NCBI GenBank assembly: GCA_001782235.1 | Contig: MFOC01000007.1 | Coordinates: 86,799 to 150,798, forward strand | Direction of reading: 5' to 3' | DNA length: 64,000 nt | Source of the DNA: Candidatus Levybacteria bacterium RIFCSPHIGHO2_02_FULL_40_18 | GTDB lineage: Bacteria > Patescibacteriota > Microgenomatia > Levybacterales > GWA1-39-11 | Shown here: positions 25,881-42,700 of the stretch, in pieces | How the letters are laid out: every line of letters starts with the position of its first letter | Numbering within the stretch: the first letter of the stretch is position 1 | Made by a program: the position numbers and the translations under genes | The notes under the pieces: generated by a model | Seen by the model: the letters and a program-made list of their open reading frames with translations, nothing else | Told to the model about the DNA's origin: nothing | The model's database searches: none

Positions 25881-26954
25881 CTATGCTGTTGCTTGGACTC
25901 CGCCGAATAGTTCGCGTCTTAGTTTCTCACGTGCGTCGATTGACGTAGTTTCTAGTGGATTAAAAATCTCGCCGTTCAAAGTAATTTCCGTTGCTTCAAA
26001 TTCATGATTTTTCTGTGGGTCCTCAAAATAGATTTTATAGGTGCCGTTTTGAAGCTGAGTAGCAGAGGCAAATTGTCCAAGAGCATTTGTTTTAAAGGCC
26101 CTAACCGGAATGCCGTTTGAGTCAATTACCTCAACTAAAATATTAGGCAAGGTTTTACCTCGTGCATCACGGATAATTCCAAGCACTACATTGGGGACAT
26201 CGGGTAGAGTTGGAAAGCCTCCGGTAAGGCTTGGATTTGCACGCACAGGGGTTGGCTGTGGCAGAGTTGTTTCTTTTGGAATTTCATGCCGAGTTTCCTT
26301 CATTGAAAATTCAGCGTCCCCAGCCTCTTTTTTGGGGACAGGCGGGGGGCGTTGAGCTTCCTTTGCGATTTCATCAAGTCTTTTTTTGTTCAGCTCCGAA
26401 GCCGTGTTTTCTTGATTTACCACCATAGGACTTCCTAAAACCGGCGGAGTAGAGACCGCACTTGATCCGTTTGTAAAATAGCTATTGATGGTGTCCAATA
26501 TGCGAGTTTCTGATTGATCCGGACGGAAAGGAGAATTTCTGAGTCTGCTTAATAAAACTGCTCTTTTTTCATCTTGTGGATTCGCAACCTTTGCTATCCC
26601 GCCTTGGCGGGGGGCACCTTGCTTTTTGGGAAGCTCGCCAAACACTTGAAACGTTGCCAGATTTGCACCCCTTTTTCTATATAGATAGCGATTTTCAGAA
26701 GGAATTGCTTTTGCAAAGTTGACGAGCATTACATCCATTGGTCTTCCTTCAATTGGAACAAATGCAAGAGCAACTCCTACAAGCGCAAAAGCCGCCATAG
26801 TTGGAGCTTTAATTAAAATATTGATTGGAAGTACAAAAGCAACAGTTGTTAAAATTCCAAATCCGAGAAGATATAAAAATTGCTTTACAGTAATGCTTCC
26901 AATGAGTTTAAACTTGAAACCCGTAACATCTTGCGGAATAGGGTGATTTTCCAT
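25881..26954 (-). CDS. VirB3/PrgI-like membrane protein with Pro-rich linker and C-terminal Ig-/transthyretin-like domain
   Basis: Two N-terminal TM helices immediately upstream of VirB4, which is the VirB3 position. The C-terminal domain (TLPNILVEVIDSNGIPVRAFKTNALGQFA..) looks CarboxypepD_reg-like. Confidence 0.4.
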   Translation of the reverse strand: MENHPIPQDVTGFKFKLIGSITVKQFLYLLGFGILTTVAFVLPINILIKAPTMAAFALVGVALAFVPIEGRPMDVMLVNFAKAIPSENRYLYRKRGANLATFQVFGELPKKQGAPRQGGIAKVANPQDEKRAVLLSRLRNSPFRPDQSETRILDTINSYFTNGSSAVSTPPVLGSPMVVNQENTASELNKKRLDEIAKEAQRPPPVPKKEAGDAEFSMKETRHEIPKETTLPQPTPVRANPSLTGGFPTLPDVPNVVLGIIRDARGKTLPNILVEVIDSNGIPVRAFKTNALGQFASATQLQNGTYKIYFEDPQKNHEFEATEITLNGEIFNPLETTSIDAREKLRRELFGGVQATA

Positions 26955-27195: not shown

Positions 27196-28539
27196 CTATT
27201 TCTGAGAGGCCATGTCCATACCCATATCCGCCACAGCCATAAGAAGAAACAGAAGACCTAGCAGTCCTATCCCGCCAATTGTTTTTGCCTTTTTGATGGC
27301 GGCTTCTCTCTTTAATTTTTTTTCAGCTTTTTGTTCCGGAGAATCTTTAGGATCATCCTGCAATTCATGAAAAATAGCATTTACAGCTGTTTCAAGATTA
27401 CCGCTTTTTAATGCATTTTTTACTTCTCTTGCGGTTTTAGTGTCTACTTGTGCAGTGCGGACCTTTTCAAGATAAATTTGCATGCCCTGGTCCTGCCTTA
27501 GGTAGTCTGAAGCTTTTTCATAAAAAGATACATATTCTCTTTCCAATGCAAGCTCTCGTTCTAACTGTTTTCTCGTTTCTCCATCAAGATTTCCACTATT
27601 TAAGCTCTTCTGAATTTCTTGTACTCTACTTGAAGCTCTTGTAGAGAGCGTATCAAGATCCAAGTTCTGCATAATTTTTGCAGCGGTTTCTGGGTCAAGC
27701 AAATTTCTACCTGCGAGCGAATCTAAAAACTCTTGTTTTTGAGCTGGATCTTCAATAGTGCGTTCAGCAAACCCCCGCATGTCTTCTGTGGTTATAATTT
27801 CTGTTTCATCCGCAGCTTTTTTGCTGAGAGCATTTATATTATTTGAGTCTTTTCCTTCAAGCGCTTGTTCTCCTCCTTGGAGCACATCTATATGCAACTG
27901 GAGTAGCTCCCTTTGCCCGGGGGGCATGCGTGCCATTATTACAGAAGCAGCATCCGGGTTAGAAGTTAAAATTGATTGTTGGATTTGCTCTCGCGTTAAA
28001 GTTTCTGGGACTTGTACATTTTCATTTTCAGGATCCTGCAAGAAACAGGAAAATTTTCCATCTGCAGTTACCTCAAGGCTTTTTACAGTCATTACCTTAC
28101 CGTCTTTTGTATATTTCAAAGGGTCACTGGATTTAAATGTTAGTGCCTCACCTGTATGAGTGCCATCGCTCAAGGTTTCTATTTGCCACATTCCAAAGAG
28201 TAGATTTTTACCCTTATCAGTTTCGAGCAAATTGATTCTTTCCTGCTCTGTCAAGCCCTCGACTTCTTGAGCTGCTTGCCTCATTTCCCTGTAGACCGAG
28301 CGGCTTCCCACAGTCCCTATCTCTCTTATTTGAGTTTGCCTGGAGACTTCTCTTTCTGAAGTTCTTGATTCCTCTTGTTCAAGAGATGAGTCCTGGCGAG
28401 AAGGAGTATCTCGCTGCACTGGTGGCGGCACTACAGCTGTTGCTTCAGGGGTCGCACCTTCTATTGCGTCTGGTCCCATAAACTTATCATACTTGAAAAA
28501 ACAAGCTGCTTCAAGTAATAATAGTGATATATGGTTCAA
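27196..28539 (-). CDS. hypothetical charged/coiled-coil protein with C-terminal TM anchor
   Basis: Glu/Gln-rich, C-terminal IGGIGLLGLLFLLMAV. A hairpin terminator follows at about 27135-27165. Confidence 0.5.
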   Translation of the reverse strand: MNHISLLLLEAACFFKYDKFMGPDAIEGATPEATAVVPPPVQRDTPSRQDSSLEQEESRTSEREVSRQTQIREIGTVGSRSVYREMRQAAQEVEGLTEQERINLLETDKGKNLLFGMWQIETLSDGTHTGEALTFKSSDPLKYTKDGKVMTVKSLEVTADGKFSCFLQDPENENVQVPETLTREQIQQSILTSNPDAASVIMARMPPGQRELLQLHIDVLQGGEQALEGKDSNNINALSKKAADETEIITTEDMRGFAERTIEDPAQKQEFLDSLAGRNLLDPETAAKIMQNLDLDTLSTRASSRVQEIQKSLNSGNLDGETRKQLERELALEREYVSFYEKASDYLRQDQGMQIYLEKVRTAQVDTKTAREVKNALKSGNLETAVNAIFHELQDDPKDSPEQKAEKKLKREAAIKKAKTIGGIGLLGLLFLLMAVADMGMDMASQK

Positions 28540-31500
28540 TTCAATTCACATGAATTGGCAGTAGCAGGTCCTGCCACAAGACAACCGCGACAAGGGCGGA
28601 AAGAAGAGCAAGCACCCCCAGGATCGGAAACTGTTTTAAAAGTTCGGAAAAGCGCATTCTTAAGAGAAGAAACATCAGGTACTCGTGTAAGAAGCATTAG
28701 AGGACGAGAACGCGGAATCCAGTCAGAGTGGGTTTCTTTAGATGAACATATAAAAGAAGAGTATCGAATTTTTCTAAAAGACCATGCTGAAGGTTTATTA
28801 AGGCTTTACAACAACCACCAAGAAATCCTCCAAAGCGAACCTCACAGACACGATGAGGAATTATTCAACATGTTTACATCTGAGAGAAGAAACGCAGACG
28901 GTACCATTAAGAAAATAATAGATGAACAAAAAATTGAGGGCTTCTTAAAAAAACCGGAAGGATGGATGGTAACAACGCAATTACTTGAGCATCAAACCGC
29001 AATGCAATTGTTTGCGTTAGGGTTGCACGCAGCTGCTAATCCTCAGGGAGAAAGAAATGCTTTGGGTGGTAAGGTAACTATTCCACTTGGAATAGATCAG
29101 GGTATTTTAAACAGGCTTGGGAGGGAAGTGGTAGAAGGTTTAAGACTTAATGAGTTTGCTGCTACCTTTGGAGGAAGAAGAGGGGAGGCAAGAATTTTGG
29201 GCTTAATTAGGGCTCCCTGGGCAGATAATTTAAGGCGATGGCATGTAGCAGGAATAACGGGCGGTGCATCCGCTTTGGGAATAGCAGGCACCGCAATGCT
29301 TGGACCGGAGGCAATGATTGGAGCAGGTATTGCCCCATGGGCATTTCAATGGCTCCAAGCCTCAATTGGCACTGGTGTTCAGGTTGACATGAGGCAGTGT
29401 AGCGCAGCTTTTCAGGCAATAAGAACGAATCCCACAGAGGTTGAATATGTAAAAGAAGTTTTTGGAGTAGATATGCGAGATTTTGTCGATCTTGGCTATA
29501 ATCAAATCGGCCTAGCACCACATAGAGCGGTGGGAGGCAATCTTGAAACCTATACAGACGTAAACAATCTGAGAAATAATGCCGTAGGAAATATAATTAC
29601 GCGCATGGAATTCTACACCAAAATTGGTGTTCCGCTTGAGAAGCTTGATGCCTTACCCGAGCAATTTCTATATTTATATACTAACCAACAGGAGCAAACC
29701 GGAACCGAATGGCAGAGAAGAATTCAAGAAGTCTTCCTTCCGAATGCCGGAGGCATCAGAGACATAAATGGTAATAACATTGAAACTGCTCCCGGAGTTC
29801 CCAATCCGGCTTTTGACGCCAACAATTTGGATTTTGCCGGAAACATCTCAAGATACATGGATGCAAGAAGACAGATAATGGTAGGAATGGTACGGGATAT
29901 GATTCAAGAAGAAAGAAGTGCGGCGGCTTCTTTAGATCAATCAAAGCAAGCAATTACCCAAATGATAACAGAGAGAAGATCTGAAGGTTATAGACAAAGA
30001 AGAACAGAAAGACTGGGTCAAGAAAGAACAAGACTCGAAGCCTATAGAAATATTTTAGATGGGCAGACAGGTGCATTCACTATATATAACCAAACAATAA
30101 CGGAGCTTAATGAAGAGAGAACAAATCTTGCGACCGAACTTTCAAGGACTTTTGCAGGAGCATTTGGAGGAGATGTTGATGCTGCTTTAACCTCGGCCAG
30201 AAGTATTTTATCGACGCCTGGAACTACCATAACTATTAATGGAAATGTAATTGCTTCTACTCGTCAGAGATTTACAGATCTTGATGCCTGGAGGTCAACA
30301 GAGATAGCCGATATAAAAAATCACAGACCAGCACATTTAGACCCGACAGACGATGAGTATCCAGTATGGGTTCAATCAGAGAGAGAAAGAATACTTAGCG
30401 ATTATCAGAACCAGAAAGCTGATATTCAAGCAGATGTAAATATAATCAACCAGCAGATTGAAAATCTTGAGGGGTTTAGAACTAGAGTTACAGTAGCTGA
30501 AAGGCGGCTTGAGAACAACGAAGAGGGACAGCCATCAAGGATTCTCATTCAACAACTCGAGGGTTGGGAGAGGGATCGCGCTCAAATTACTGGTTGGGGC
30601 ACGCCTGCTAATGTTTTGGATAATGCGTTTTTAGCTAGCGGCGATATAGATGCGATTATGGCAAGAATTAACACTGCTAATGCTGCTACTCCCGCAAACG
30701 GTTGGCCGGAGGCAAGAAATAATGATCCGGCTTATAGAACTCGAGTTTTTCAAGCAGTTCTTGAGTCAAGAGCTCAAGTAGCAGAAGCAGCTGACACAAC
30801 AAGAGCAGCAAGACTTCCTGATTATGTCATTATAACTAACCCTGCAGTATGGAATATTAGTCAGAATGAGTTAAGACACATGACTCCTGCCGATTTAACA
30901 GCCGCACTAACAGCAAGGGCCCCGGCATTAGGGGGAATACCAATTCCAAATCCAGCTCAAATTGAAAACGCTATTCGTGAAGCACAAAATAGAATTCAAG
31001 TTAGATTAGGAGCTATCACAGAGCAAACAAGAATTACTGACGAAGCGATAGAAAACAGAAGGTTCCAAATAGAAGGCGTTAACTTTGATGATGAGATCAG
31101 ACAACTTGAAACAGCATTAACTTTGCTTAATCGACAGCCGGATATTATTGCAGGACGCCCGACTCGTGAGAATCGTGCTACATTTACCGACAGGACTGTT
31201 ATGGCAGGAGATACAACATATTCACAATCTGAAAGAGACGTAGGTTCTGTCAGGGGCTATTATGAATTTATGAATCTCCTCTTTAATTATAGAGAAAGAG
31301 GCGTAGTTGAGGGAGTGGACCGCGACGAATATTTTAGAAGAATTTCTCAAGTTTTACCACCAGCAAGATTAGGGCAATTACTAAATGAAGCTTTGGGATT
31401 GGGAGGTTCCGGAATAAATCTCAATACTGTCTTAGCAAGACTTGATGCAAGACTTGCCTCAGGACAAATAAACGACAGAGATATGGTAAGGGTTTTATTC

Positions 31501-31545
31501 AATGTAATAGAAAGAAATAGACTTGAGGCTCTTGCCCTAAGTTAA
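28531..31545 (+). CDS. giant hypothetical protein (1004 aa), island-specific
   Basis: One central hydrophobic Gly/Ala-rich stretch (AGITGGASALGIAGTAMLGPEAMIGAGIAPWAF) and extensive coiled-coil-like Gln/Asn/Arg-rich regions. No recognisable catalytic motif. Confidence 0.6.
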   Translation: MVQFNSHELAVAGPATRQPRQGRKEEQAPPGSETVLKVRKSAFLREETSGTRVRSIRGRERGIQSEWVSLDEHIKEEYRIFLKDHAEGLLRLYNNHQEILQSEPHRHDEELFNMFTSERRNADGTIKKIIDEQKIEGFLKKPEGWMVTTQLLEHQTAMQLFALGLHAAANPQGERNALGGKVTIPLGIDQGILNRLGREVVEGLRLNEFAATFGGRRGEARILGLIRAPWADNLRRWHVAGITGGASALGIAGTAMLGPEAMIGAGIAPWAFQWLQASIGTGVQVDMRQCSAAFQAIRTNPTEVEYVKEVFGVDMRDFVDLGYNQIGLAPHRAVGGNLETYTDVNNLRNNAVGNIITRMEFYTKIGVPLEKLDALPEQFLYLYTNQQEQTGTEWQRRIQEVFLPNAGGIRDINGNNIETAPGVPNPAFDANNLDFAGNISRYMDARRQIMVGMVRDMIQEERSAAASLDQSKQAITQMITERRSEGYRQRRTERLGQERTRLEAYRNILDGQTGAFTIYNQTITELNEERTNLATELSRTFAGAFGGDVDAALTSARSILSTPGTTITINGNVIASTRQRFTDLDAWRSTEIADIKNHRPAHLDPTDDEYPVWVQSERERILSDYQNQKADIQADVNIINQQIENLEGFRTRVTVAERRLENNEEGQPSRILIQQLEGWERDRAQITGWGTPANVLDNAFLASGDIDAIMARINTANAATPANGWPEARNNDPAYRTRVFQAVLESRAQVAEAADTTRAARLPDYVIITNPAVWNISQNELRHMTPADLTAALTARAPALGGIPIPNPAQIENAIREAQNRIQVRLGAITEQTRITDEAIENRRFQIEGVNFDDEIRQLETALTLLNRQPDIIAGRPTRENRATFTDRTVMAGDTTYSQSERDVGSVRGYYEFMNLLFNYRERGVVEGVDRDEYFRRISQVLPPARLGQLLNEALGLGGSGINLNTVLARLDARLASGQINDRDMVRVLFNVIERNRLEALALS

Positions 31546-31553
31546 AGTATTAT

Positions 31554-31901
31554 ATGAGTCTACAGACTAAAGATTTAATAAAAATATTACCCTTTGACGA
31601 GGCTTTTAAGAAAGAGCTTGGTGATTCCTTCGATAGCTTAGACACTGACAAAAGAAATAGTATTGAAAAGCTGCTTTGGGGAACATATTTTGCTCTTTAT
31701 GACTTTAAATTAAATGAGAACCTTTCAATTGCTCTTGCGGAAGCAAAAAAAAACAGAGAAAAGCTAGATGAGAATTTTTATTGGAGAGTGAAAGAATTGA
31801 CGGATCGGGAGATAGAACATGTAAGCGCTGAAGATATAAAAACAGCCGATTTAGAAGAAGCAAGAGATAAACTCGCAGAAATTGTAAGCCCTGATAAATG
31901 A
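31554..31901 (+). CDS. hypothetical acidic protein
   Basis: Tightly follows the giant ORF. No motif. Confidence 0.45.
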   Translation: MSLQTKDLIKILPFDEAFKKELGDSFDSLDTDKRNSIEKLLWGTYFALYDFKLNENLSIALAEAKKNREKLDENFYWRVKELTDREIEHVSAEDIKTADLEEARDKLAEIVSPDK

Positions 31902-32210
31902 CTATCTTGGGGCGAGCTGCCCTACGCCCGTGATTTGGGATATGGCGTTAAGGAAGAAAAATGAGAGAAAGATAAATATCAGACCAGCAAGCGCATAGAC
32001 TAAAGTTTTCCTAGCGCTTGATATCTTTTCAGGATCCCCTTCTGACATAACATATTTATATCCTGCATAAATTATCATAAAAACCGATACAATACCCGCA
32101 ATTACAATAAGGGCATTGATGATATTTTGAAGAACCACAGGGATACACGAAAGAGTTGCGACGCCCTCAGGGCTAACACAACTTCCCCAATCAGAAATAA
32201 TATCAAACAT
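31902..32210 (-). CDS. T4SS pilin-like protein (VirB2/TrbC-like, paralog 1)
   Basis: Two hydrophobic helices flanking the conserved YAGYKYVMSEGDPEKISSARKTLVYALAGL motif shared by four paralogs. Confidence 0.55.
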   Translation of the reverse strand: MFDIISDWGSCVSPEGVATLSCIPVVLQNIINALIVIAGIVSVFMIIYAGYKYVMSEGDPEKISSARKTLVYALAGLIFIFLSFFFLNAISQITGVGQLAPR

Positions 32211-32260
32211 ATATATATTTTATAGATAACCTAATCTTAAAATCAATAAAGAAGGTTTTG

Positions 32261-32659
32261 TTATTTGAATTCAGGGAGGGTGAGGATCTTGAGATTTCTT
32301 AGGTCTCCAAGTCCAAGAGCCTGAAGCACAACATTTATAATGACAAAAGAAAGAGCTATTATAATAAGACCTATTACTGCGGCAATTATATGATTTCTTG
32401 CATCTGCAACTTTTTGTTTGTCTCCGCCTGATGTGATCCACTGAAATGCCCCAATGACTATAAAAAGAAGTGCCGCCAAAAAGGCTATAACTATTATAAA
32501 GGCAACCAAAAACCCTACCACTTGGCCAATGGTTGTTTCAGGAGGAATAACAGTTGCGCCCGCGGGAGTTTTGACTCCGGCATCTATCGCGGCAAAAGCA
32601 GGTGCGGCAAGTGAGGAATAAGAAATTAGAGCGAAGGCACCTGATAATATCTTTCTCAT
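32261..32659 (-). CDS. T4SS pilin-like protein (paralog 2, with signal peptide)
   Basis: Signal peptide ...AAPAFAA, then ...GAFQWITSGGDKQKVADARNHIIAAVIGLIII. Confidence 0.55.
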   Translation of the reverse strand: MRKILSGAFALISYSSLAAPAFAAIDAGVKTPAGATVIPPETTIGQVVGFLVAFIIVIAFLAALLFIVIGAFQWITSGGDKQKVADARNHIIAAVIGLIIIALSFVIINVVLQALGLGDLRNLKILTLPEFK

Positions 32660-32698
32660 AAATTAATTAGAGCATGTTTCAAACCCTTTGTCAATAGT

Positions 32699-33034
32699 CT
32701 ATGGATTAACAACTGTTTTAACACCAAACGCGCCTGCTACGAGATTTACAAAGACAAGCGCCAATGACATAACTATTAATCCAAATATCGCATAGATAAC
32801 TATTCTTCTTGCTTTATCCCATTTTTGCTTGTCCCCGGACGCTTGTAGCCAATAAAAACCCCCATAAACAATATAGAATAGAGAAAGAAAAATTCCAATA
32901 ATTAGCGCTAGTTGAATGAAAAAAGATGCAATATTGCCTATTGTAAATTGAGGTCCGGTAGGAATACCGGGAGGCGCCTCAATATCAACTTGGCCTCCGC
33001 CTGAACCCGGTACTTTTAATGATAAATATCTCAT
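32699..33034 (-). CDS. T4SS pilin-like protein (paralog 3)
   Basis: ...YGGFYWLQASGDKQKWDKARRIVIYAIFGLIVM. Confidence 0.55.
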   Translation of the reverse strand: MRYLSLKVPGSGGGQVDIEAPPGIPTGPQFTIGNIASFFIQLALIIGIFLSLFYIVYGGFYWLQASGDKQKWDKARRIVIYAIFGLIVMSLALVFVNLVAGAFGVKTVVNP

Positions 33035-33171
33035 ATTAGAAATTGGTTATTAATAATTAGAAAATAGTTCAGAAATTAGAAATTAGAAATTGGTTCTTGA
33101 TTTTTAACTATTTTCTATTCTCTATTTTCCATTACCATTTTCCATTCTCCTATAACTATTTTCTAATATAT
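33035..33171. repeat. palindromic intergenic element (family copy 2)
   Basis: TAGAAATTGGTTCTTGATTTTTAACTATTTTCTATTCTCTATTTTCCATTACCATTTTCC is nearly the exact reverse complement of copy 3. Confidence 0.65.
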
Positions 33172-34569
33172 TTAGCGGGTGATTCCTGGTATTTTCAAAA
33201 TATCAACTCCTATTATCTCAAGTATAACAATTGAGAAAATGATGAACAACAATCCTACGACTGCAGAAGTTATCGTTTCCCTTGCTCCTGCGATTTTCTC
33301 TTTATCCCCTCCTGACGTTATTAATATATAGCCTGAGTAGATTATTATTATGATTGCCCCAAATCCCGCAATTGTTAATATAAATCTAAAAATTGTCTCA
33401 ATGAATCCTTTTGGAGTGACATTAATTGGTCCGATTGCCGAATTTATGGTTTTACAGTCACCAGGGCGAAGATTAATATCACCTTCCCCACTTCCACAAG
33501 GCAGTATTGCACCGGGAGCAACCTTATTTAACGCCGCAAGGTCTTTAAGAAAGGTACGATACTCCTCGCCTTTGGGATCTTGTCTATAATGCAGGGGATC
33601 ATCACATGTTCCACCTTCCTTATTATTAGCTGATGTGATTATGCATGTTGCTTCATAATATGTAAATCCACCTTTACAACCAGGTGGGTTTGGAACTGAA
33701 GGAAATACGCTGACGCTTACCCAAGCCCATGCGGTTGGGTTATCATCATCAACCTGTTCTCTTACAGTTATTGTGTATTTTCCAGCGGAAAGTTTTTGAA
33801 ACTCAATTCTTTTTCCACTCTCATTCTCGCTCGTAAAGGCAAGACATCCTCCCTGTCGGTAACCATTGTTTCCAATCATCAAAATTTGGTAGTTATTCCT
33901 TCTCCACCCTCCAGGCCTGAACGAATTATTAATGGCATTGCCTAGATTTACGGTGATTGTTGCGCCAGGTCTCAAGTCTGTACCAGGATAGATTGATAGA
34001 GAAGGATAAGTTCTATGAACATAAAAACCTCCTATTTTAATTGGTTTGTAATAGGCATCTTTTATTAGGGTTCCGATACTCAGCGCATAGACATTCCCAC
34101 CATGAAAATAGACAGTGCCACCACAGTCAGTTTTGACCTTGCTACTTCCTGCTCCGCATACCCCCTTAACAGTTACATTGCCTTTGCTATCTGATTTTAG
34201 CCCTAAGATAAAATTGTCCAATATATCTGGGCCGTTTATCCCAGGTACAAATCCTTCTTCTCTAAGACATGCGCTGTCTCCCGTACAAATTATATAACCA
34301 GACTTATCACTCTCAAGTCCATAAAAAGTAATATCAATTATTTTATCTGCTTCATCAAGACATTCAGGTCGCTCGCTTGTTGAAAATTCAACGTCTGTTC
34401 CCTCAAGAATTGTCTCAGTGGGAGAAGGACTTGTCTGACATGGATCAAGCTGGGCAAAAGCAGGAGTTTTGAAAAGTAAAAATATCGCGGCGAAGAGGAA
34501 GGACGCGGTTAATATAAGAAGCTTCTTCATATATTTATGATAGGCAGAAGGAGTAGGGGAAGTCAACAT
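33172..34569 (-). CDS. extended pilin: secreted Cys-rich ectodomain (about 380 aa) fused to C-terminal pilin-like domain (paralog 4)
   Basis: Signal peptide, more than 20 Cys in the ectodomain, C-terminal ...YSGYILITSGGDKEKIAGARETITSAVVGLLFII. Flanked by near-identical inverted repeats. Confidence 0.6.
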   Translation of the reverse strand: MLTSPTPSAYHKYMKKLLILTASFLFAAIFLLFKTPAFAQLDPCQTSPSPTETILEGTDVEFSTSERPECLDEADKIIDITFYGLESDKSGYIICTGDSACLREEGFVPGINGPDILDNFILGLKSDSKGNVTVKGVCGAGSSKVKTDCGGTVYFHGGNVYALSIGTLIKDAYYKPIKIGGFYVHRTYPSLSIYPGTDLRPGATITVNLGNAINNSFRPGGWRRNNYQILMIGNNGYRQGGCLAFTSENESGKRIEFQKLSAGKYTITVREQVDDDNPTAWAWVSVSVFPSVPNPPGCKGGFTYYEATCIITSANNKEGGTCDDPLHYRQDPKGEEYRTFLKDLAALNKVAPGAILPCGSGEGDINLRPGDCKTINSAIGPINVTPKGFIETIFRFILTIAGFGAIIIIIYSGYILITSGGDKEKIAGARETITSAVVGLLFIIFSIVILEIIGVDILKIPGITR

Positions 34570-34572
34570 CCG

Positions 34573-34723
34573 CTAGAAATTAGTTATTAATAATTAGAAA
34601 ATAGTTGTTGGAAAATGGAAATTAGTAATGGAAAATAGAGAATAGAAAATAGTTAAAAATCAAGAACCAATTTCTAGTTTCTAATTTCCGAACCATTCTC
34701 TAATTTCCCATAACTACTTTCTG
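34573..34723. repeat. palindromic intergenic element (family copy 3)
   Basis: GGAAAATGGAAATTAGTAATGGAAAATAGAGAATAGAAAATAGTTAAAAATCAAGAACCAATTTCTA, inverted relative to copy 2. Confidence 0.65.
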
Positions 34724-36040
34724 CTACTCTGTGAGTTTGTAGCCGCGGCCTTTTATGGTTTGGATAGAATTAGGATTATTGGGATCATCTTCTATTTTCT
34801 TTCGTAAGCGATAAATTATTTGATCAAGGGCTTGGTCTGTTACACCTTCTTGAGTTTTAGTGTCTTTCCAGACATTTGAGATTATTTCGTCTTTTTCACA
34901 TACCCGCCCTTGGTTTTGAAGCAAAAATCTAAGTAGTCTAAACTCCTGCGGAGAAAGAATTTCGGTTAAGTTTTGATCTCCCTTGAGGATCTCATTGCGC
35001 TCCTGATCATAAGACAATCTTGGGGAGGTGGGGGTTAAAGTTTTTAGGTATGTGTCGAACAATGGAATAACGAGTTTGCCATCACGGGTTAGTCCTGCCT
35101 TTTCTAAAAATTCATTTTTATTATTTGCTTTTATATCCTTCTTTTCTTCCGGTGTCAGGAAATTCCATATCTCTGAAAGCGCGCTCCTAACCTGTGGTTT
35201 TAACAGTAAGACTTCGGATAATCGGCTGTTGGCTGTTGGCTGTTGGCTATTGGCCAGGGTAGCTTCATAACAAATTCGTGCGAGTTTTCCGTGGCCGCCG
35301 GTCAGTTTTATAATTTCACTTTTAATTCTTTCATCAGCCGACTTTCCCGAAATTTCTTCAAGATGCTTGAATCGAAATTCTAGTCCCACCTTATCATAAA
35401 GCGAAAGATATACTATGTTACCGATTAAAAACTCAGAGAATTCGGCATAAATAGAAGATTCTAAAACCTCCTCGATTGGACGCGTTATGCCAAAAACAGC
35501 AGTAAATCTATACTTTGCGCGGTTTCGAAGAATCTTTAAGTTAAGAAAAAAGGAAGAGTCAATATTTTGTACATATTCCTCAAAACGGTCCAGCAGAAAA
35601 ACAATATTTAATTCGCATTCATTTGCAAGATAGTCTATAGCTTTTTTTAAGTTTTGAGAAAAGACCATCTCATCGGAGAATTTAAGAGCGTCTGAGAGAA
35701 ATTTATTAACAACCGACTCTTCTTCTTTTAATCTTCTTTCGCCAAAAGAGGAAGCAATAGAGATTAAGATAAATTTTAATATGTCGGAAAGGGACCTTTT
35801 GGCTACTTCTGAGAAGTCCATATAAACAAAATGATAAGAAGATTCCCTTTTACCTAAGTGGAGCTCCCGGACCGTTCTATTATAAGGAAGTAAACGAAGC
35901 GCGTTGCTTTTCCCTGTGCCCGGTAGCCCAATTACCTGACAGGATTTGCCCGATGATACGAATTCGATAATTTTGGCGATCTCAGCCTTTCTTGTTTCTT
36001 TTGGGTATAGGCTCTCAAAATGAGAAGGCTCGATAATCAT
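34724..36040 (-). CDS. AAA-type ATPase fused to C-terminal OmpR/PhoB-type winged-helix DNA-binding domain (candidate island regulator)
   Basis: Walker A GLPGTGKSNAL near the N-terminus. The C-terminal LSPQEFRLLRFLLQNQGRVCEKDEIISNVW...ALDQIIYRLRKKIEDDPNNPNSIQTIKGRGYKL matches trans_reg_C. Confidence 0.6.
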   Translation of the reverse strand: MIIEPSHFESLYPKETRKAEIAKIIEFVSSGKSCQVIGLPGTGKSNALRLLPYNRTVRELHLGKRESSYHFVYMDFSEVAKRSLSDILKFILISIASSFGERRLKEEESVVNKFLSDALKFSDEMVFSQNLKKAIDYLANECELNIVFLLDRFEEYVQNIDSSFFLNLKILRNRAKYRFTAVFGITRPIEEVLESSIYAEFSEFLIGNIVYLSLYDKVGLEFRFKHLEEISGKSADERIKSEIIKLTGGHGKLARICYEATLANSQQPTANSRLSEVLLLKPQVRSALSEIWNFLTPEEKKDIKANNKNEFLEKAGLTRDGKLVIPLFDTYLKTLTPTSPRLSYDQERNEILKGDQNLTEILSPQEFRLLRFLLQNQGRVCEKDEIISNVWKDTKTQEGVTDQALDQIIYRLRKKIEDDPNNPNSIQTIKGRGYKLTE

Positions 36041-36103
36041 AGAAAATAGAAAATAGTTATTAGAAAATAGACAATGGTTCGGAAATTAGAAAATAGAAAT
36101 TGG
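36041..36103. repeat. purine-word half-element (family copy 4, left arm)
   Basis: AGAAAATAGAAAATAGTTATTAGAAAATAGACAATGGTTCGGAAATTAGAAAATAGAAATTGG. Confidence 0.55.
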
Positions 36104-36532
36104 TTAACGATCATGGTAATTCTTCCAAGATTTCTTAAGATTCGTTAGTTGCTTACAGGAGATTATATATAAATTTATGACTTCGTTGCAAAGTTTAGGA
36201 TCGACGTATTTACTATAAACATCTATGCATACTGATAAATGATTTATCATTTCGTAACATTCACCTATCGTATCATCTATATATTTACTCCATGCTTTTT
36301 TCTGATATCTTTTGGCAAACCCCTCAGCAAGTATGGCTGGTCCTGCTTTGCAACTACGTCTCATTTGATCAACAAGATCAAACTTCTCTTCCTTCGGTAG
36401 ATTAGTAATTATTTCCTTCAATACTGTGACCATTGCCTTATATAAATTTTGGTACACCTCAAGATCTTGAAAAGTTCTGATTGGCTTTTTCTTTCTATTT
36501 TCCATTTTCAAATATCTATTACCATTTTCCAC
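36104..36532 (-). CDS. four-helix-bundle protein (23S rRNA intervening-sequence protein family)
   Basis: FQDLEVYQNLYKAMVTVLKEIITNLPKEEKFDLVDQMRRSCKAGPAILAEGFAKR matches the TIGR02436-type pattern. The first about 12 codons are read from repeat-element sequence, so the true start is probably internal. Confidence 0.55.
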   Translation of the reverse strand: MENGNRYLKMENRKKKPIRTFQDLEVYQNLYKAMVTVLKEIITNLPKEEKFDLVDQMRRSCKAGPAILAEGFAKRYQKKAWSKYIDDTIGECYEMINHLSVCIDVYSKYVDPKLCNEVINLYIISCKQLTNLKKSWKNYHDR

Positions 36533-36560
36533 TTTCCTACAACCATTTACAATTATCAGA
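36485..36560. repeat. pyrimidine-word half-element (family copy 5, right arm)
   Basis: TTTCTTTCTATTTTCCATTTTCAAATATCTATTACCATTTTCCACTTTCC, the inverted partner of copy 4 across the four-helix-bundle gene. Confidence 0.55.
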
Positions 36561-36627
36561 CTTCTGTTACGCTGCTGTTAGGTTAATATCAAGTATCCTA
36601 AGCTATATTCTTGTAAACTTGCGCCAT

Positions 36628-39600
36628 ATGACACACGAAAATTTGACACCAAGAGACGCTATCAACTATTCTATAAATAGAATGCCAGAACCCATAATAG
36701 ATGGCCTACGAGGCGGCTCTGCCTCAAGTCGTTCAGTTCCGGGATATGATTCTTCCAGAACCGTAGATGAAATACAGGCTCAAAGAATTGTTGATGAGGT
36801 CAAATCCAAATCTTATTCTGCTAAAAGCAAATGGAGCAAAGAACAGGTTGATAAAAATGCCGGGCTTTCTGATGAGGAACGTCTTAGTCAAGCAGCTAAA
36901 ATTTTAAATCGGGAGCTTTCTCAAGAACAAAAAGACGCAGTCATTGGAACACATAAAATTAGCGAAGGCGAGATGGGAAAAGATGATAAACCTGTCAAAA
37001 TAGGAGAATACACACAGGCTCAAATTAAAAGAAAAGCCAATTCATTGAAAAAAGCAGGGTTTAATCTTGAAGAAAGGCGTGCTTTGCTTGAAAGCGGCAT
37101 TGCCGGCCTTCCTCTGGAAAGATTCGCCGCTATTAATCCTGACACATATACAGATCCTGAGATTAAAAATAAAACGGGGTTTGTAAAAACTATGGGGACA
37201 GAAGGAAACGCTGATTCGGAATTCTTACAGAATCAACTCTTTGAACTCAACTCTAGAATCGATAGGGGAACTGGGGACCTCAGAGAAGCAAGAACATTTC
37301 GGGATCAAATACAAGATCTTTTGACAGAGGCTCGTAGGCAAGAAACTGCAGAATTAGAAGAGAGAAGGCGTGCCGCGGAGGCAAGGTCTCCTACAGAGAG
37401 AAGGGGAGGCTATGAGCATCTTGAACGAACAGAGGAACAATTAAGAGCTATGACTCCTGAGGAACGTCAGAATTGGAGGGATCAAATTAAGCAGGCAATC
37501 AGAGAAGCGCCAGCCATCGATGCCTCTCGCTTCCCTGAACAACTTTTAGTAATAGCATTGAGCGATAAGGAACTTCGTGAGATGCTTCTCAATAGAATTC
37601 TTTTTAAACCCTATGAAGATACAACTGAGGCAAATATGTATAGGCTTAACTTTTACGCTGAGGGGAATCGCGACGATATTCTTGGGAAATTAGCCGAAAT
37701 AACTGATGGGAAATATGATTATTTTAAAAAACTTCAGACCGCGGTAGAGTTATTTCATGCAATGAATGTATCAACTGTCTCAGGAGACATAGAGCATTTA
37801 CTTGACTATGCTCGGCGAATAAATTTTGAACATTTTTCCTTAATGCAAGAGCTTCCAGGTCTCCCAGATGTCATGAGGCTTTATGAAGAGAAATACCAGG
37901 AGATTTTAGCAAGAGAAGGTAGAATAGCAACAGAGGGTTACAAAACATTAAAAAAAGAAGTAGAGAGAGCCTTCAATGAGATGAATGAAAAAGGGATTGT
38001 CAGAAGCGAATATGAAACGGAAAGGACTGGTGACAGGCCATGGATAATGGAAGACTGGGAAAGAACTAGGGCTATTAATGCGGGAAGAGCATTTTTTAAT
38101 ATTACCATTCGCGCAGCAGAACATATAGCAAATGGACAACTTGAGTCTGGAGGTAGAAAATGGACAGGATTTCCTCAGGAAGACGCTGTAAGACTTATGA
38201 ACTGGCCAAAATGGCTCGTTGAGAGATTTGAGGTTGCTATCCCTCGTGGAGGGCGTGCGTTTCTTGACAGAACAAGTAGAAACTACTTTGAATTTCTTGT
38301 TGAGCGCAAGCGAAAACTGGGGATAAATAGAATAGCCCAGCTTGGAGGAATGAGGGTTGATGAGCTTGAACTTGGGGCAATGTTTGGCGTAAGCGGAGTT
38401 TATAGCTCCTGGAGACTTGAGGCAATGCTATTTCCAAAGATCAAACTTGCCAATGGCCAGACACTTAGAGACTGGCTTGATGAGGAAGTCGGATATATAT
38501 CGCCGGACGGCAAGACAATTATGGCAAGAGGGAAAGACAGGCAGAGTCACTGGGTTGATAAAGGTATCTCCTTGCAGAAGCGGGCTGACTGGTTAGACCA
38601 GATTCAAGGAGATATTAAAAGCCAAGACCAGTTGCTCAAGTTTTTATCTCCTGTCATAGAAAATACAGACATTGCACTTGGTGTATTACTTAAGCAAGGT
38701 CTTACCTCAGGAGAGGTAGGATATAAGGTGAGAGAGAGAATTTGGCAAAGAGTTGCTGAAACAAATCTGCCTCTGATGATAAATTATCTTTCAAGCATTA
38801 GTGAAATGGATGATCCAATAGAGGTTGGTATAGGAGAACCTTTAAAAGGCGCACCAAAAGCTCAAAATCGCATAAGGCCAGATGACTGGACGTGCGGCGA
38901 AGAAGGGAGCGAGGAACGAAAGGAGGGAGATAGGAAGTGGAATGAGTTTAAAGAAAATGTTTTACTGCATCATGCCTGGGAAGTTAAACGCGCGGCGGGA
39001 GCAAATGTGTCAGAGGAGTCGCCTGTCCGTGATTATATTCGTGATCACCAAGATTTGATAGATAAAATTAAGCAAGAGGGGAGAGCACTTGCACCGCAAC
39101 TTGCAGATATTGTTTTTCCTTACGTTCCTTTTATGAATGACGTGCCATTTGAACTTATCGATTATGCAGGCCCGGGAGAAACATTCTACAAGAGGAGATT
39201 AGGCTCTGACCTTCCGAGCTTTAGCGCTGCAGAGCGCGCGTTTACAACCATTGTTAATAATCCGGGTGGGATAGGAGCAGAGAATGCACTTAAGGCATTT
39301 GATGAGATTGTAAAAGGAATTGAGAGTCCACAAGGGACACCGGATGCGCAGGAAAGGGTCTATCCAATGCTTTCTGCCTGGGGAGAATTTGTCCTGGCGC
39401 GTCCCGGGCATAGACAGATGATAATAAAGGCAGTTACAGAGATACTAAGAAAACCCACTTCCATTGCTCAGGAGTTTGCAGGAATGGATGCGGAATCTCT
39501 CGATGAAAATCAAATGCTGGCTGTTTTAGGAAATGCTACGAAAGCTGGAATTATAAGCCATGACCTTTACAATGAGATGAAGAAAAAAAAGCATCTGGGC

Positions 39601-39702
39601 ATTCTTTTTATCTTGTGGGCGCTTTTCCGTGATATTATTATAATGGCTCCGGCAATCGCAGCTTGGGAGATGGGTAAAGATACGATGAAGAAAGCGGCAT
39701 GA
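36628..39702 (+). CDS. giant hypothetical protein (about 1024 aa) with C-terminal TM anchor, island-specific
   Basis: The ORF track begins at 36481 inside the repeat element. The first ATG is 36628 (MTHENLTPRD). C-terminal hydrophobic HLGILFILWALFRDIIIMAPAIAAW. No known catalytic motif. Confidence 0.55.
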   Translation: MTHENLTPRDAINYSINRMPEPIIDGLRGGSASSRSVPGYDSSRTVDEIQAQRIVDEVKSKSYSAKSKWSKEQVDKNAGLSDEERLSQAAKILNRELSQEQKDAVIGTHKISEGEMGKDDKPVKIGEYTQAQIKRKANSLKKAGFNLEERRALLESGIAGLPLERFAAINPDTYTDPEIKNKTGFVKTMGTEGNADSEFLQNQLFELNSRIDRGTGDLREARTFRDQIQDLLTEARRQETAELEERRRAAEARSPTERRGGYEHLERTEEQLRAMTPEERQNWRDQIKQAIREAPAIDASRFPEQLLVIALSDKELREMLLNRILFKPYEDTTEANMYRLNFYAEGNRDDILGKLAEITDGKYDYFKKLQTAVELFHAMNVSTVSGDIEHLLDYARRINFEHFSLMQELPGLPDVMRLYEEKYQEILAREGRIATEGYKTLKKEVERAFNEMNEKGIVRSEYETERTGDRPWIMEDWERTRAINAGRAFFNITIRAAEHIANGQLESGGRKWTGFPQEDAVRLMNWPKWLVERFEVAIPRGGRAFLDRTSRNYFEFLVERKRKLGINRIAQLGGMRVDELELGAMFGVSGVYSSWRLEAMLFPKIKLANGQTLRDWLDEEVGYISPDGKTIMARGKDRQSHWVDKGISLQKRADWLDQIQGDIKSQDQLLKFLSPVIENTDIALGVLLKQGLTSGEVGYKVRERIWQRVAETNLPLMINYLSSISEMDDPIEVGIGEPLKGAPKAQNRIRPDDWTCGEEGSEERKEGDRKWNEFKENVLLHHAWEVKRAAGANVSEESPVRDYIRDHQDLIDKIKQEGRALAPQLADIVFPYVPFMNDVPFELIDYAGPGETFYKRRLGSDLPSFSAAERAFTTIVNNPGGIGAENALKAFDEIVKGIESPQGTPDAQERVYPMLSAWGEFVLARPGHRQMIIKAVTEILRKPTSIAQEFAGMDAESLDENQMLAVLGNATKAGIISHDLYNEMKKKKHLGILFILWALFRDIIIMAPAIAAWEMGKDTMKKAA

Positions 39703-39721: not shown

Positions 39722-41335
39722 TTATCTAAAGACCCGTCTGAGAACAGCAGTAAGCCCTTTCTCACCCGCCAGTGGCATAGCGCCTTTTAGAGCTGCAAAA
39801 CCACCTCCAGCAGTTCCCCTAACAGTTCCTGTTATGACACCCAGTCCTCCTGCAACCGATCTTCCTATTGCTGCGGTGTACTTAAATTCGGGCGCTTTTA
39901 GAGCGTCCCTGACAATATTGACAACTTCAGGGGTCAAGAGAATTATTCCAAGACCAATTATTGACGCAAAGTTTGCTGGATCCAAAAAGTCTCCGGTAAG
40001 TGGTGGAACAAAAGGCGTTGTGCTTGGATCTTGTTTAGTAAAGCCACTCATAAAAGCCTTTCCAAAAAGAAACATGGCAATTGTTACCGGAAATACCGAG
40101 AGGTTTGATAATATTGATCTTATCCACGTTCCAAAACCAGATCTTCCCGGGATTAGCCCCGAGGCAATATAAAAGGGGGCAAGGACTACATTTATGAGGA
40201 CGTAGATATAGGATTTAATAAGTTGAAACCAAAGACGCAGGAGCGCTGCAAAAATTGCGATTATTATAATAAGGTACGTAACTGCACCTGCAAAAAATCC
40301 CAGAATTCTATTTCCAGACAGTTCATTCACCCCAAAACCTATTGCAAAACCTGCTACCGCCCCAGGGATCCCTCCGAAACTGCCAGCAGCCTTAGCTACT
40401 TTACCTAGCACTGAAGGTAGTCCACCTCCTGCGCCGCCCAACACGGTTCCAAAGATTCCGCCGACAATTCCTGCTAAAACATTCCCAAGAGTACCATCAA
40501 ATATAGATCGCACAATCCCTGAGATACTTTTAGCAACGCCTTCTGCAATTCCAGATATCCCCATGTCCTTTCCGGTGAGCGGGGCGCTGCCAAATCCTCC
40601 GGCTGCCGCAAAGGGGTTACTTGCCAACATACTTGTTGGGTCAATTCCTTGCTCGGCGAATATTGTCATAATTAAGTAGATTGAGACATACATAAGGTCC
40701 ACTAAAAACCCTGCGATTGCATAAGAGAAGGTAATCAAAACTAGAGCAATCACAATTTTTGGAATTTGATTTTGCATTGTCATAACGGTTCTGGGGTCAA
40801 TTTTTATTCTAAACATTATTCCAAGACCCACAATTATAAAAACAATTACAAAGAGAAGATAAGTCAAATTTCTAAAAGCCTGCCAGAGCTTAAGAGTGGG
40901 CGTAAGGGAATTAAAACCTAGGCTTCCCTCAGGTCCTTGCGCATATGTTTTTTTAACTATGCCAAAATTTGAAGCAACATAGCTTCCGTAATCATGAGTT
41001 GAGACAGGAATGTAAAAAGTTGCCGACATAAGATTTCCCAACATTCCAAGCGCTCCGCCTCCTCCCTCAACAAATCCTATTTTTCCAGTATTTGGATCTA
41101 TTCCAAGACACTTATTACCAGGATTGGCGGGATCAATTCCTGAGAGTTGACAAGAAGTTGCGGCGATAATTTCAATAAAGACGCTTTGGGTGTATGTATG
41201 GAAATTCTGCGGGACGTCCGGATTTGTGTTGAGGTAATTTGCATTAGGGTTTGGGAATTGAGCATTCGCGTTTGGTACAAAAATAAGGAACAATGAATAA
41301 AGAATAACGAATAAAGAGAGCAGTTTAAATATCAT
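39722..41335 (-). CDS. polytopic Gly-rich membrane protein, VirB6/TrbL-like candidate
   Basis: Signal/TM N-terminus, more than 6 TM helices, and Gly-rich loops (GGGGLPSVLGKVAKAAGSFGGIPGAVAGFAIGFG) as in TrbL/VirB6-type pore components. Assigned by topology only. Confidence 0.4.
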   Translation of the reverse strand: MIFKLLSLFVILYSLFLIFVPNANAQFPNPNANYLNTNPDVPQNFHTYTQSVFIEIIAATSCQLSGIDPANPGNKCLGIDPNTGKIGFVEGGGGALGMLGNLMSATFYIPVSTHDYGSYVASNFGIVKKTYAQGPEGSLGFNSLTPTLKLWQAFRNLTYLLFVIVFIIVGLGIMFRIKIDPRTVMTMQNQIPKIVIALVLITFSYAIAGFLVDLMYVSIYLIMTIFAEQGIDPTSMLASNPFAAAGGFGSAPLTGKDMGISGIAEGVAKSISGIVRSIFDGTLGNVLAGIVGGIFGTVLGGAGGGLPSVLGKVAKAAGSFGGIPGAVAGFAIGFGVNELSGNRILGFFAGAVTYLIIIIAIFAALLRLWFQLIKSYIYVLINVVLAPFYIASGLIPGRSGFGTWIRSILSNLSVFPVTIAMFLFGKAFMSGFTKQDPSTTPFVPPLTGDFLDPANFASIIGLGIILLTPEVVNIVRDALKAPEFKYTAAIGRSVAGGLGVITGTVRGTAGGGFAALKGAMPLAGEKGLTAVLRRVFR

Positions 41336-41344: not shown

Positions 41345-41495
41345 TAGTATTTAGAAATTGGTTTTTGGACAATAGAAATTAGTAATAGAAAATAGAGAAT
41401 AGAAAATAGAAACAAATACTATTCTCCAAGTTCAAATTTCCATAACCATTTTCCAATTTCTTACAACTATTTTCTAATAAGTCTATTTTTAGTAT
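41345..41495. repeat. palindromic intergenic element (family copy 6)
   Basis: AGAAATTAGTAATAGAAAATAGAGAATAGAAAATAG is near-identical to the copy 3 core. Right arm ...CCATAACCATTTTCCAATTTCTTACAACTATTTTCTAAT. Confidence 0.6.
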
Positions 41496-42565: not shown

Positions 42566-42700
42566 CAGAAAATAGTTAATAGATAATAGAAAATAGTAAT
42601 GGAAGTTGGAAAATAGAAAATAGATTAAATACCAATTTCTAATATCTAATTTCCATAACTAATATCTAATTTCTAACAACTAATTTCTGTAATTTAGAAT
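42566..42700. repeat. palindromic intergenic element (family copy 7) forming the nrdR 5' leader
   Basis: GAAAATAGTTAATAGATAATAGAAAATAGTAATGGAAGTTGGAAAATAGAAAATAG ... CCAATTTCTAATATCTAATTTCCATAACTAATATCTAATTTCTAACAACTAATTTC. Confidence 0.6.

Follow-up and report, generated by a model that had tools for sequence, protein, structure and literature searches.

A STAND/ORC-like NTPase fused to an OmpR-type winged helix as the best candidate regulator of a type IV secretion-like locus in Levybacteria

Here, we describe a gene in a 64,000-nt stretch of the genome of Candidatus Levybacteria bacterium RIFCSPHIGHO2_02_FULL_40_18 (contig MFOC01000007.1, positions 86,799 to 150,798; this whole stretch is called the window) that, judging from sequence comparisons, is the best candidate for the controller of the T4SS-like system (T4SS, type IV secretion system) encoded around it. 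The gene, at 34724-36040 on the minus strand, encodes a 438-aa protein in which a predicted STAND/ORC-like P-loop NTPase module precedes a C-terminal OmpR/PhoB-type winged helix-turn-helix (wHTH) domain. In the explanation that we favour, and that we hold to be probable though a good way short of certain, the protein is a cytoplasmic one-component STAND-type transcription factor that sets expression at the T4SS-like locus. This explanation draws on the conserved motifs of the protein, on its lasting adjacency to pilin genes and on a conserved direct-repeat element in the neighbouring promoter.

A winged-helix protein without a receiver domain

An earlier reading of the DNA letters (the original prediction) had proposed a P-loop ATPase fused to a C-terminal OmpR-type wHTH, with no receiver, at this position, and this architecture was confirmed by the open reading frame (ORF), the Pfam match of the C-terminus and the structure model. 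The ORF begins with ATG and has exactly the coordinates originally given. Since homology searches returned more than 1000 homologs, the closest of which is a 100% identical protein from Candidatus Levybacteria RIFCSPHIGHO2_02_FULL, it is not a chance ORF; the gene is genuine and conserved, and belongs to a bacterium of the candidate phyla radiation (CPR, Patescibacteria). The features of the gene and its product, all on the minus strand, are as follows:

34724-36040, minus strand: the gene itself, 438 aa, STAND/ORC-like NTPase plus OmpR-type wHTH (from the ORF list, Pfam, homologs and the structure model)
35036-36040, minus strand: N-terminal nucleotide-binding module, residues 1-335, with the N-terminal motif FExLYP..R..E, a P-loop core of alpha/beta type and two helical parts, the lid and a small subdomain
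35906-35929, minus strand: Walker A motif GLPGTGKS, residues 38-45, read from the sequence
35576-35602, minus strand: Walker B strand VFLLDRFEE, residues 147-155, from the alignment and the modelled strand at 145-151
35477-35491, minus strand: sensor-1-like motif GITRP (R187-P188) at the end of strand beta4, from the alignment and the modelled strand at 179-185
35282-35302, minus strand: TGGHGKL, residues 247-253, in the lid domain, at the position of the GxP/sensor-2 motif of STAND and ORC ATPases
34727-35023, minus strand: OmpR/PhoB-type winged-helix DNA-binding domain, residues 340-438, with the recognition helix GVTDQALDQIIYRLRKKIE

The DNA-binding domain matches the Pfam model Trans_reg_C (PF00486) at residues 362-436 with 80.5 bits (gathering cut-off 26.2; E 9.5e-23), covering the model over essentially its full length, and the same region aligns to many solved DNA-binding domains of the OmpR/PhoB family (e.g. 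1p2f, E 7e-11). Most residues of the recognition helix are invariant among 38 aligned orthologs, which is in line with a conserved DNA target. A two-component response regulator would carry an N-terminal CheY-like receiver with a phospho-acceptor aspartate, and none is present here: Pfam and NCBIfam scans gave no Response_reg match, and the response-regulator models of NCBIfam cover residues ~340-438 alone, with scores far below their cut-offs. Nor does the protein have the make-up of the anti-phage STAND proteins (Avs and similar). A PADLOC scan for membership in a defence system was negative, its sole match (mad8, E 0.004) being non-significant and lying in no qualifying stretch.

The N-terminal module resembles STAND and ORC ATPases

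With 38 homologs as its input, AlphaFold gave a confident model of the protein (pLDDT 91.5, pTM 0.77), which displays the alpha/beta P-loop core, the helical lid and the small helical subdomain (approximately residues 266-335) in this order, followed by the wHTH. Among the known structures listed for the model, the Pyrococcus Walker-type ATPase PABY2304 (2qen) has the highest value (18.3), followed by NB-ARC (15.7), MuB (15.0), Cdc6/Orc1 (14.9) and TnsC (14.2), with CED-4 (14.0), BrxC (13.9) and MalT (12.1) the lowest of those listed. A profile search for PDB sequence relatives of the ATPase part (alignment A2) listed nothing but wHTH domains among its best 60 matches. We regard the N-terminal ATPase as established because the confident AlphaFold model is joined by transitive homology to relatives that match AAA_16, nSTAND1 and NACHT. 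On this combined footing of model and homology, the likeness to STAND/ORC-like ATPases that had been proposed from the letters appears to be correct.

The individual motifs agree with this assignment. The segment VIGLPGTGKS (residues 36-45) contains a Walker A motif of the STAND form GxxxxGK[ST], and alignment A1 shows no variation at P40, G41 and G43. Walker B likewise has the STAND form, in which hhhhD is followed by another acidic residue (DxxD/E type). Neither D151 nor F153 varies, R152 hardly does, and residue 154, acidic in this protein, is Asp or Glu in 112 of 117 pattern-matched sequences. Directly after the modelled strand at residues 179-185 follow R187 and P188, both at least 90% conserved. 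We take GITRP to be the counterpart of the STAND motif hhhTxR(P), and from its position after beta4 the sequence FGITRP would thus supply the sensor-1 arginine. The original prediction had made an active ATPase depend on Walker B and sensor residues, and with D151, the acidic residue 154 and R187-P188 these are in place.

The lid motif is similarly constrained, with G249 invariant and T247, H250, G251, K252 and L253 at least 90% conserved in the alignment. Its exact form TGGHGKL is found in 67 of 120 homologs, and G248 and G249 are nearly invariant throughout the wide family. It lacks the proline of the STAND GxP motif, reading GGHGK instead, and in the subdomain that follows (residues 266-335) neither the alignment nor the model revealed an MHD-like histidine. 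No repeat-type sensor domain (TPR, WD40 or LRR) was found in the protein, in which the lid and the wHTH are only ~70 residues apart.

Walker A drift among close homologs

Arginine takes the place of the Walker A lysine in 31 of 118 close homologs, and Gly, Asn or Ala that of the Ser/Thr in 13; with two proteins carrying both changes, a total of 42 depart from canonical GK[ST]. The lysine and arginine forms are interleaved on a neighbour-joining tree of the close homologs, so the Lys-to-Arg change must have occurred repeatedly. The homologs with an altered Walker A (from the set P0001-P0120) are otherwise 50-60% identical, which is unusual for a P-loop protein that is presumed to be active.

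Since this drift leaves room for a role as a mere scaffold, we kept such a role as a rival explanation. According to it, the N-terminal module is a degenerate pseudo-ATPase that serves only for constitutive oligomerisation, and the protein is a signal-independent DNA-binding regulator or autoregulator. Besides the 42 of 118 non-canonical homologs and the scatter of the K/R exchange over the tree, the lack of a sensor domain and the replaced GxP proline would fit this idea. However, both Walker motifs are canonical in the protein of the window, a positive charge (K or R) is retained at the Walker A position in all homologs, and even throughout the wide family the conservation of G43 and D151 does not drop below 90%, a pattern that fits retained phosphate binding; moreover, the relatives from outside the CPR mostly have GKS or GKT. 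Taken together, we consider a pseudo-ATPase rather unlikely. In our reading of the alignments, phosphate binding would be under selection while rapid hydrolysis would not, which fits a slow nucleotide switch. The intact ATPase implied by the original prediction thus stands for this protein, with the qualification that the canonical Walker A is not shared by all of its close homologs.

The link to pilin genes withstands divergence and rearrangement

Downstream of the gene lies a series of pilin-related genes, such that the order along the minus strand is: the conserved promoter element, a gene of the 23S_rRNA_IVP family (IVP gene), the regulator gene, a gene for a 465-aa pilin-like protein and three T4SS_pilin genes. 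The members of the T4SS-like locus that matter for the following comparison are:

33172-34569, minus strand: 465-aa protein with a C-terminal T4SS_pilin-like segment (24.7 bits, cut-off 26.6), the first gene downstream of the regulator
31902-33034, minus strand: three T4SS_pilin (VirB2-like) genes at 32699-33034, 32261-32659 and 31902-32210 (PF18895; 33.3, 36.7 and 41.2 bits)
22992-26954, minus strand: PrgI-like gene at 25881-26954, TraC-like gene at 25171-25845 and VirB4-like ATPase gene at 22992-25049 (Pfam PrgI, P-loop_TraG and CagE_TrbE_VirB; the TraC-like label comes from orthologs)
36628-39702, plus strand: divergent gene for a 1024-aa protein with a hydrophobic C-terminal tail (ORF; 1024 aa in ENA; no Pfam match)

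For a comparison across genomes, one genome per GTDB species was scanned and the proteins of the window were searched against the returned loci by tblastn. This yielded ~55 loci with full-length or near-full-length orthologs of the regulator (44-62% identity), essentially all of them from Levybacteria as judged by record title or synteny. Wherever the downstream sequence of a locus measured 1 kb or more, as in 38 distinct species loci of the ultrasmall Levybacteria, the neighbour of the ortholog is the gene for the 465-aa pilin-domain protein, and the pilin array then follows in nearly all of them, in agreement with the gene calls. The ortholog lies upstream of the pilin-domain gene and on the same strand in every one of these loci except L042, in which the regulator gene alone is inverted while keeping its place. 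Where contigs are long enough, the PrgI-like, TraC-like and VirB4-like genes come next on one side, and a membrane protein, DUF5667, NrdR and ribonucleotide reductase (RNR) genes are found upstream.

Relatives whose N-terminal module is no more than 32-36% identical still adjoin four to five T4SS_pilin genes, twice in a divergent arrangement: L089 (32%) has the same layout as the Levybacteria orthologs, and in L087 and L088 (34%) the regulator gene is divergent from five T4SS_pilin genes. Outside the CPR, the relatives show no T4SS link, with L057 (Anaerolineales, 26%) located by pstA-pstB-phoU and L090 by GAF kinases. The co-occurrence with T4SS loci that had been suggested as a check on the original prediction was therefore found in 38 of 38 species loci and in distant CPR relatives as well. 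That the link to pilins survives both sequence divergence and rearrangement within the CPR is the strongest available argument for it being functional.

A conserved neighbourhood may nevertheless be frozen synteny of a narrow lineage, in which case the protein would be a general or global transcription factor without a specific tie to the T4SS-like system. The full-length close homologs do all come from the one lineage Levybacteria, in which synteny extends over everything from RNR to VirB4, and the window contains only one candidate operator. Yet pilin adjacency persists at 32-36% identity and in a divergent layout, it survives the local gene inversion in L042, and one subclade has a further, weaker copy of the promoter element in front of the PrgI-VirB4 operon, all of which makes this explanation distinctly unlikely.

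A candidate operator in a bidirectional promoter

Alignment of the regions upstream of the orthologs revealed a conserved element, from which a position-weight matrix was built. In the window, it is located as follows:

36563-36595, minus strand: conserved promoter and candidate operator TACTTGATATTAACCTAACAGCAGCGTAACAGA, consisting of CTTGATA followed by the half-sites CTAACAG (36575-36581) and GTAACAG (36564-36570), 11 nt apart

The consensus reads (A/T)nCTTGATA-N4-CCTnACAa-N3-cCTnACAA. Across the entire 64 kb, the matrix has a single match with a score of at least 12, which covers minus-strand positions 36552-36595 and scores 31.4, and exactly one match per ~21-kb locus was found in 35 of the 41 loci scanned. 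Within CTTGATA, the positions C3, T5, G6 and A7 are invariant over 39 distinct sites. The half-sites, CCT[T/C]ACA[A/G] and [C/G]CT[T/A]ACAA, are 63% identical at an offset of 11 vs 25-29% at offsets of 8-10; three repeats are present in L029, L032 and L036, and L087 contains a perfect 10-nt direct repeat, TCCTTATAAA, whose copies are 11 nt apart. Direct repeats spaced by one helical turn (11 nt) are the classic site layout of the OmpR/PhoB family, and the conserved element is thus a plausible operator of the wHTH protein encoded next to it. When the window was scanned with the pattern CTAACAGN5TAACAG (up to two mismatches), one site only was found, a count no higher than expected by chance. 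A generic scan for promoters and terminators between 31500 and 37000 gave counts not above those in shuffled sequences.

The position of the element is constrained, too. In 35 of 39 sites, it lies 30-33 nt from the ATG of the divergent gene for a protein of ~1000-1490 aa (32 nt in the window); at the other four sites, either the contig ends too near or the nearest qualifying ATG is at 6 or 22 nt. The element is best described as part of a compact bidirectional promoter, in which the second half-site may also serve as a -10 box. In one subclade (L005/L053, L017, L024, L026, L028 and L060), PrgI is preceded, ~175 nt upstream, by another and weaker copy, TTGACA-N7-TAACAG-N5-CTACAA.

A proposed mechanism

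Building on the architecture, fold class, motif conservation, neighbourhood and cis-element described above, we propose that the input of the regulator would be a minimal STAND/ORC-like P-loop nucleotide switch, which replaces a phosphorylatable receiver, and that its output would be the OmpR/PhoB-type winged helix. In the ATP-bound state, the N-terminal module would self-associate, and self-association would set two or more wHTH domains head-to-tail and cooperatively on tandem CCTnACAA half-sites 11 bp apart. These sites would be the ones in the compact bidirectional promoter between the divergent ~1000-aa gene and the regulator's own operon, which in this genome would comprise the IVP gene, the regulator gene, the pilin-domain gene and the three VirB2-like pilin genes. 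Binding to the element, which we infer to depend on ATP, would set the expression of the pilin array or operon, of the associated T4SS-like genes and/or of the divergent gene, and may do so positively or negatively, while the ADP-bound or empty protein would be inactive. Because the protein lacks a separate repeat domain that could sense a ligand, the signal would be the nucleotide state itself or a protein partner.

Several observations weigh against this mechanism. First, the Pfam STAND and AAA models stay under their cut-offs on the protein itself (NPHP3_N 18.9, AAA_22 15.2 and AAA_16 14.8 bits), such that of the profiles named in the original prediction, Trans_reg_C is matched above its cut-off and AAA_16 and AAA_22 below theirs. 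Second, the drift of Walker A suggests that ATP hydrolysis, and perhaps nucleotide switching, may be dispensable. Third, TTGATA-N18-TACAAT is also a good sigma-70 promoter, meaning that part of the conservation of the element needs no regulator. Fourth, in the loci with an inverted regulator gene (L042, L086-L088), it is the ~1000-aa gene and not the regulator gene that keeps the element at its side. Fifth, matrix and pattern scans of the 64 kb found no second element in front of the pilin or PrgI genes. Finally, the pairing of the protein with the element is a prediction from sequence comparison.

Relation to known regulators and a wider family

Proteins that couple a NOD to a DNA-binding domain are well known, and MalT and the other LAL proteins are STAND activators of this kind. 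These carry a C-terminal LuxR-type HTH and, after the NOD, a large arm and sensor (SUPR) domain. In contrast, the Levybacteria protein lacks sensor and arm, has an OmpR-type wHTH and is about half the size. Closer in its DNA-binding domain is AfsR, one of the large SARP proteins of Streptomyces, which likewise has an OmpR-type wHTH and a STAND NOD in one polypeptide. There, however, the wHTH is N-terminal and followed by BTAD, and the NOD is followed by TPR, whereas the order is reversed in the present protein, whose wHTH is C-terminal and which has no BTAD match and no TPR. Large SARP regulators such as AfsR are reported to recognise direct repeats that lie roughly one turn of the helix from each other, close to the -35 region (PMC10936776).

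With OmpR/PhoB response regulators such as PhoB and VirG, the protein shares the C-terminal DNA-binding domain, and the candidate site resembles a pho box in its 7-8-bp direct repeats with 11-bp periodicity. It differs from them in lacking both the receiver and the phospho-acceptor, and would instead be a one-component regulator with a P-loop NTPase as its input and no cognate kinase. Control of a T4SS operon by an OmpR-type factor has a known precedent in Agrobacterium, where VirG activates virB. The archaeal ATPases PABY2304 and SSO1545 (PF01637) and Orc1/Cdc6 are 13-15% identical to the protein and have a C-terminal winged helix of a different family; for PABY2304 and SSO1545, we know of no function to which it could be compared.

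To find relatives of the N-terminal module, residues 1-335 were searched by phmmer against 1.84 billion cluster representatives, which returned 610 clusters (50%-identity level) at E ≤ 1e-3 and 172 at E ≤ 1e-10, most of the relatives being 430-470 aa long. Among 86 sampled relatives, 75 match Trans_reg_C, 55 AAA_16, 53 nSTAND1, 35 AAA_22 and 12 NACHT; ATPase_2 is matched by two. The nSTAND1/AAA_16 plus Trans_reg_C proteins from outside the CPR have the same two-domain architecture, ~440-470 aa in length and 22-30% identical, but differ in retaining a canonical GK[ST] and in their unrelated contexts (L057 and L090). By these comparisons, a NOD with a C-terminal OmpR wHTH defines a sizeable family (~600 clusters) extending beyond this genome, and the Levybacteria protein forms a divergent CPR branch of it. 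A literature search on nSTAND1, on AAA_16 with Trans_reg_C and on STAND-OmpR regulators returned SARP/AfsR work only and nothing on this architecture, so that to our knowledge the family is uncharacterised. One of its members, a 366-aa Anaerolineales protein (L057, 3184-4284; 26% identity) with the same NOD and OmpR-wHTH architecture, is encoded directly downstream of pstA-pstB-phoU. This setting hints that some members of the wider family might act in phosphate regulation in place of PhoB.

Palindromic elements, IVP genes and inversions

The regulator gene is bracketed by repeats, and the original prediction had considered it as a possible regulator of the palindromic elements nearby. These elements are built from heptad units, [A/G]GA[A/G]AAT, of which the window contains 28 matches vs 3.07 expected. 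Clusters of heptads form imperfect hairpins of ~120 nt at 34599-34722, 10010-10125 and 33040-33171 (z -3.2 to -5.6). Further heptad elements are located at 41367-41407 and 42581-42621, and the elements are intergenic, lying between the cistrons of the pilin operon and around the regulator gene. The features next to the gene are:

34599-34722, no strand: intact ('empty') heptad-repeat palindrome between the regulator gene and the pilin-domain gene, with heptad matches (RNA fold -39 kcal/mol, z = -5.57)
36048-36105, no strand: proximal arm of an IVP-carrying palindrome, which forms repeat I1 with 34665-34722 (58 nt, 90% complementary, 1325 nt apart)
36488-36548, no strand: distal arm of the IVP-carrying palindrome, pairing with 34599-34659 (61 nt, 77%) and locally with 36041-36101 (repeats I2, I3, I5, I12 and I17)
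36104-36505, minus strand: IVP gene, encoding a four-helix-bundle protein of the 23S_rRNA_IVP family (Pfam PF05635, 56.8 bits), between the conserved element and the ATG of the regulator gene

The ORF of the IVP gene, if extended mechanically, reaches a GTG at 36532; the NCBI call is 133 aa. It sits in the loop of the palindrome, as intervening sequences of rRNA genes do, and is missing at this position in most orthologous loci. Genes of the same (Avd-like) family occur near the regulator in L007, L010, L018, L019, L022, L025, L041 and L042 (locus ~9500-11600), and in L007, L018, L022, L025 and L041 their ORFs occupy the gap between element and ATG; further copies are found in L087 (6577-6930) and L088 (2031-2420). 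Usually, these copies are found between the promoter element and the ATG of the regulator gene and share its orientation, and they are highly divergent from each other.

That the regulator controls or mobilises the heptad palindromes and the flanking IVP genes is suggested by the 58-nt, 90% complementary inverted-repeat arms (36048-36105 and 34665-34722) that bracket it, and by the enrichment of IVP-family genes beside its orthologs (9 of 13 tblastn matches over ~735 kb of loci lie directly beside the regulator gene). As a feature of the family, however, flanking inverted repeats were rejected: 48 orthologous loci, in all of which the regulator is conserved, have a best ungapped inverted-repeat score of 7-10, not above that of shuffled controls, vs 40 in the window. 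Because the bracketing is specific to this genome, the palindromes are not a dedicated target of the protein; they also occur far from the gene (e.g. at 10010-10125), and the conserved cis-element is unrelated to the heptads. This part of the original prediction must be considered largely refuted, and we give it almost no credence.

The inner and outer repeat pairs of the window correspond to two inverted layouts seen elsewhere, namely that of L042, in which the regulator gene alone is inverted (10001-11746), and that of L087, in which it is inverted together with the IVP gene (5193-7075). Inverted layouts were also observed in L086 and L088 (5512-6880). This correspondence suggests past repeat-mediated inversions of the regulator gene. 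In 24 contigs or assemblies with an identical protein, no orientation polymorphism was detected, a comparison that is insensitive as assemblies give the majority orientation.

The 58-nt, 90% flanking repeats and the opposite orientation in L042 and L087 are the reason to consider an invertible cassette. In its boldest form, the protein would be a sensor-less, ATP/ADP-gated master switch that couples nucleotide supply to pilin and T4SS deployment, and its repeat-flanked cassette would provide an orientation switch. We regard this idea as very unlikely; if it were true, an epibiont unable to make its own nucleotides would tie its T4SS-like machine to nucleotide supply.

Chromosomal setting and neighbouring genes

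The original prediction had further viewed the gene as the natural regulator of an island. While the tie to the T4SS-like locus stands, by synteny in 38 loci and in distant relatives, the island does not: dnaA (17554-18966) and dnaN (19152-20249) lie directly beside the T4SS-like locus, which starts at ~20252, and the same housekeeping flanks (NrdR and RNR) are found in other Levybacteria. The G+C content is unremarkable across the region, which is a conserved, ori-proximal chromosomal locus. Also encoded within the window are dnaG (92-1501), rpoD (1610-2716) and ruvB (8962-9999). In agreement with this placement, Patescibacterial T4SS genes, especially those of Microgenomatia, have been described near dnaA/dnaN, in clusters that mostly lack a relaxase (PMC12102498).

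This setting, together with a fold that resembles Cdc6/Orc1, MuB and TnsC, all of which form ATP-dependent DNA-bound oligomers, invites the thought that the protein handles DNA without regulating transcription, be it as an ATP-dependent factor for DNA loading or recognition in place of relaxase or coupling functions or as an ORC/DnaA-like factor at a nearby origin. Adjacency to dnaA and dnaN and the scarcity of relaxases would fit. Yet the window encodes a normal DnaA and, at 54372-56789, a TraG/VirD4-like candidate, and non-CPR relatives of the same architecture have no T4SS context. Furthermore, DNA-binding domains of the OmpR/PhoB class are known almost only from transcription factors. We therefore see a very slim chance for such a role; that of a replication initiator was considered separately and is unlikely with a normal dnaA 16 kb away.

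Several neighbours may belong to the T4SS-like system proper. The divergent ~1000-aa protein, which varies between 770 and 1490 aa among species and diverges fast (22-58% identity), may be a T4SS-associated component or substrate. A second ~1000-aa protein without a Pfam domain is encoded at 28531-31545 on the plus strand. Next to the divergent gene, at 39722-41335 on the minus strand, lies a gene for a 537-aa polytopic membrane protein without a Pfam match that is kept beside the locus in all Levybacteria loci, and that is a candidate for a highly divergent VirB6-like channel subunit, a component that is scarce in Microgenomatia according to the literature. DUF5667, NrdR and RNR genes follow beyond these two genes. 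Between the pilin array and the PrgI-like gene, the region 27196-31901 holds three genes (447 aa, minus strand; 1004 aa, plus strand; 115 aa, plus strand), an insertion present at the same position in only a few related genomes (L006 and L022) and absent in most. The candidate at 54372-56789 (minus strand, 805 aa), ~13 kb from the T4SS-like locus, has weak matches to TraG-D_C, TrwB_AAD_bind and DUF87 and is possibly a VirD4-like coupling ATPase.

Implications

The T4SS-like system is widespread across Patescibacteria (PMC12102498), and the one Patescibacterium that is genetically tractable needs this system and its pilin array to grow as an epibiont (PMC10633639). The published work on the system describes no regulator of it (PMC12102498, PMC10633639). 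Our analysis provides a named candidate regulator for one large class, the Microgenomatia with their Levybacteria, along with a precise candidate operator. There is no new principle in a transcription factor driven by a STAND module, MalT and AfsR being well-known examples. Rather, the finding raises the question as to whether a nucleotide switch can still operate in a sensor-less STAND module that often lacks the Walker A lysine, and it brings to light that proteins combining a NOD with a C-terminal OmpR wHTH constitute a sizeable, unstudied family of one-component regulators.

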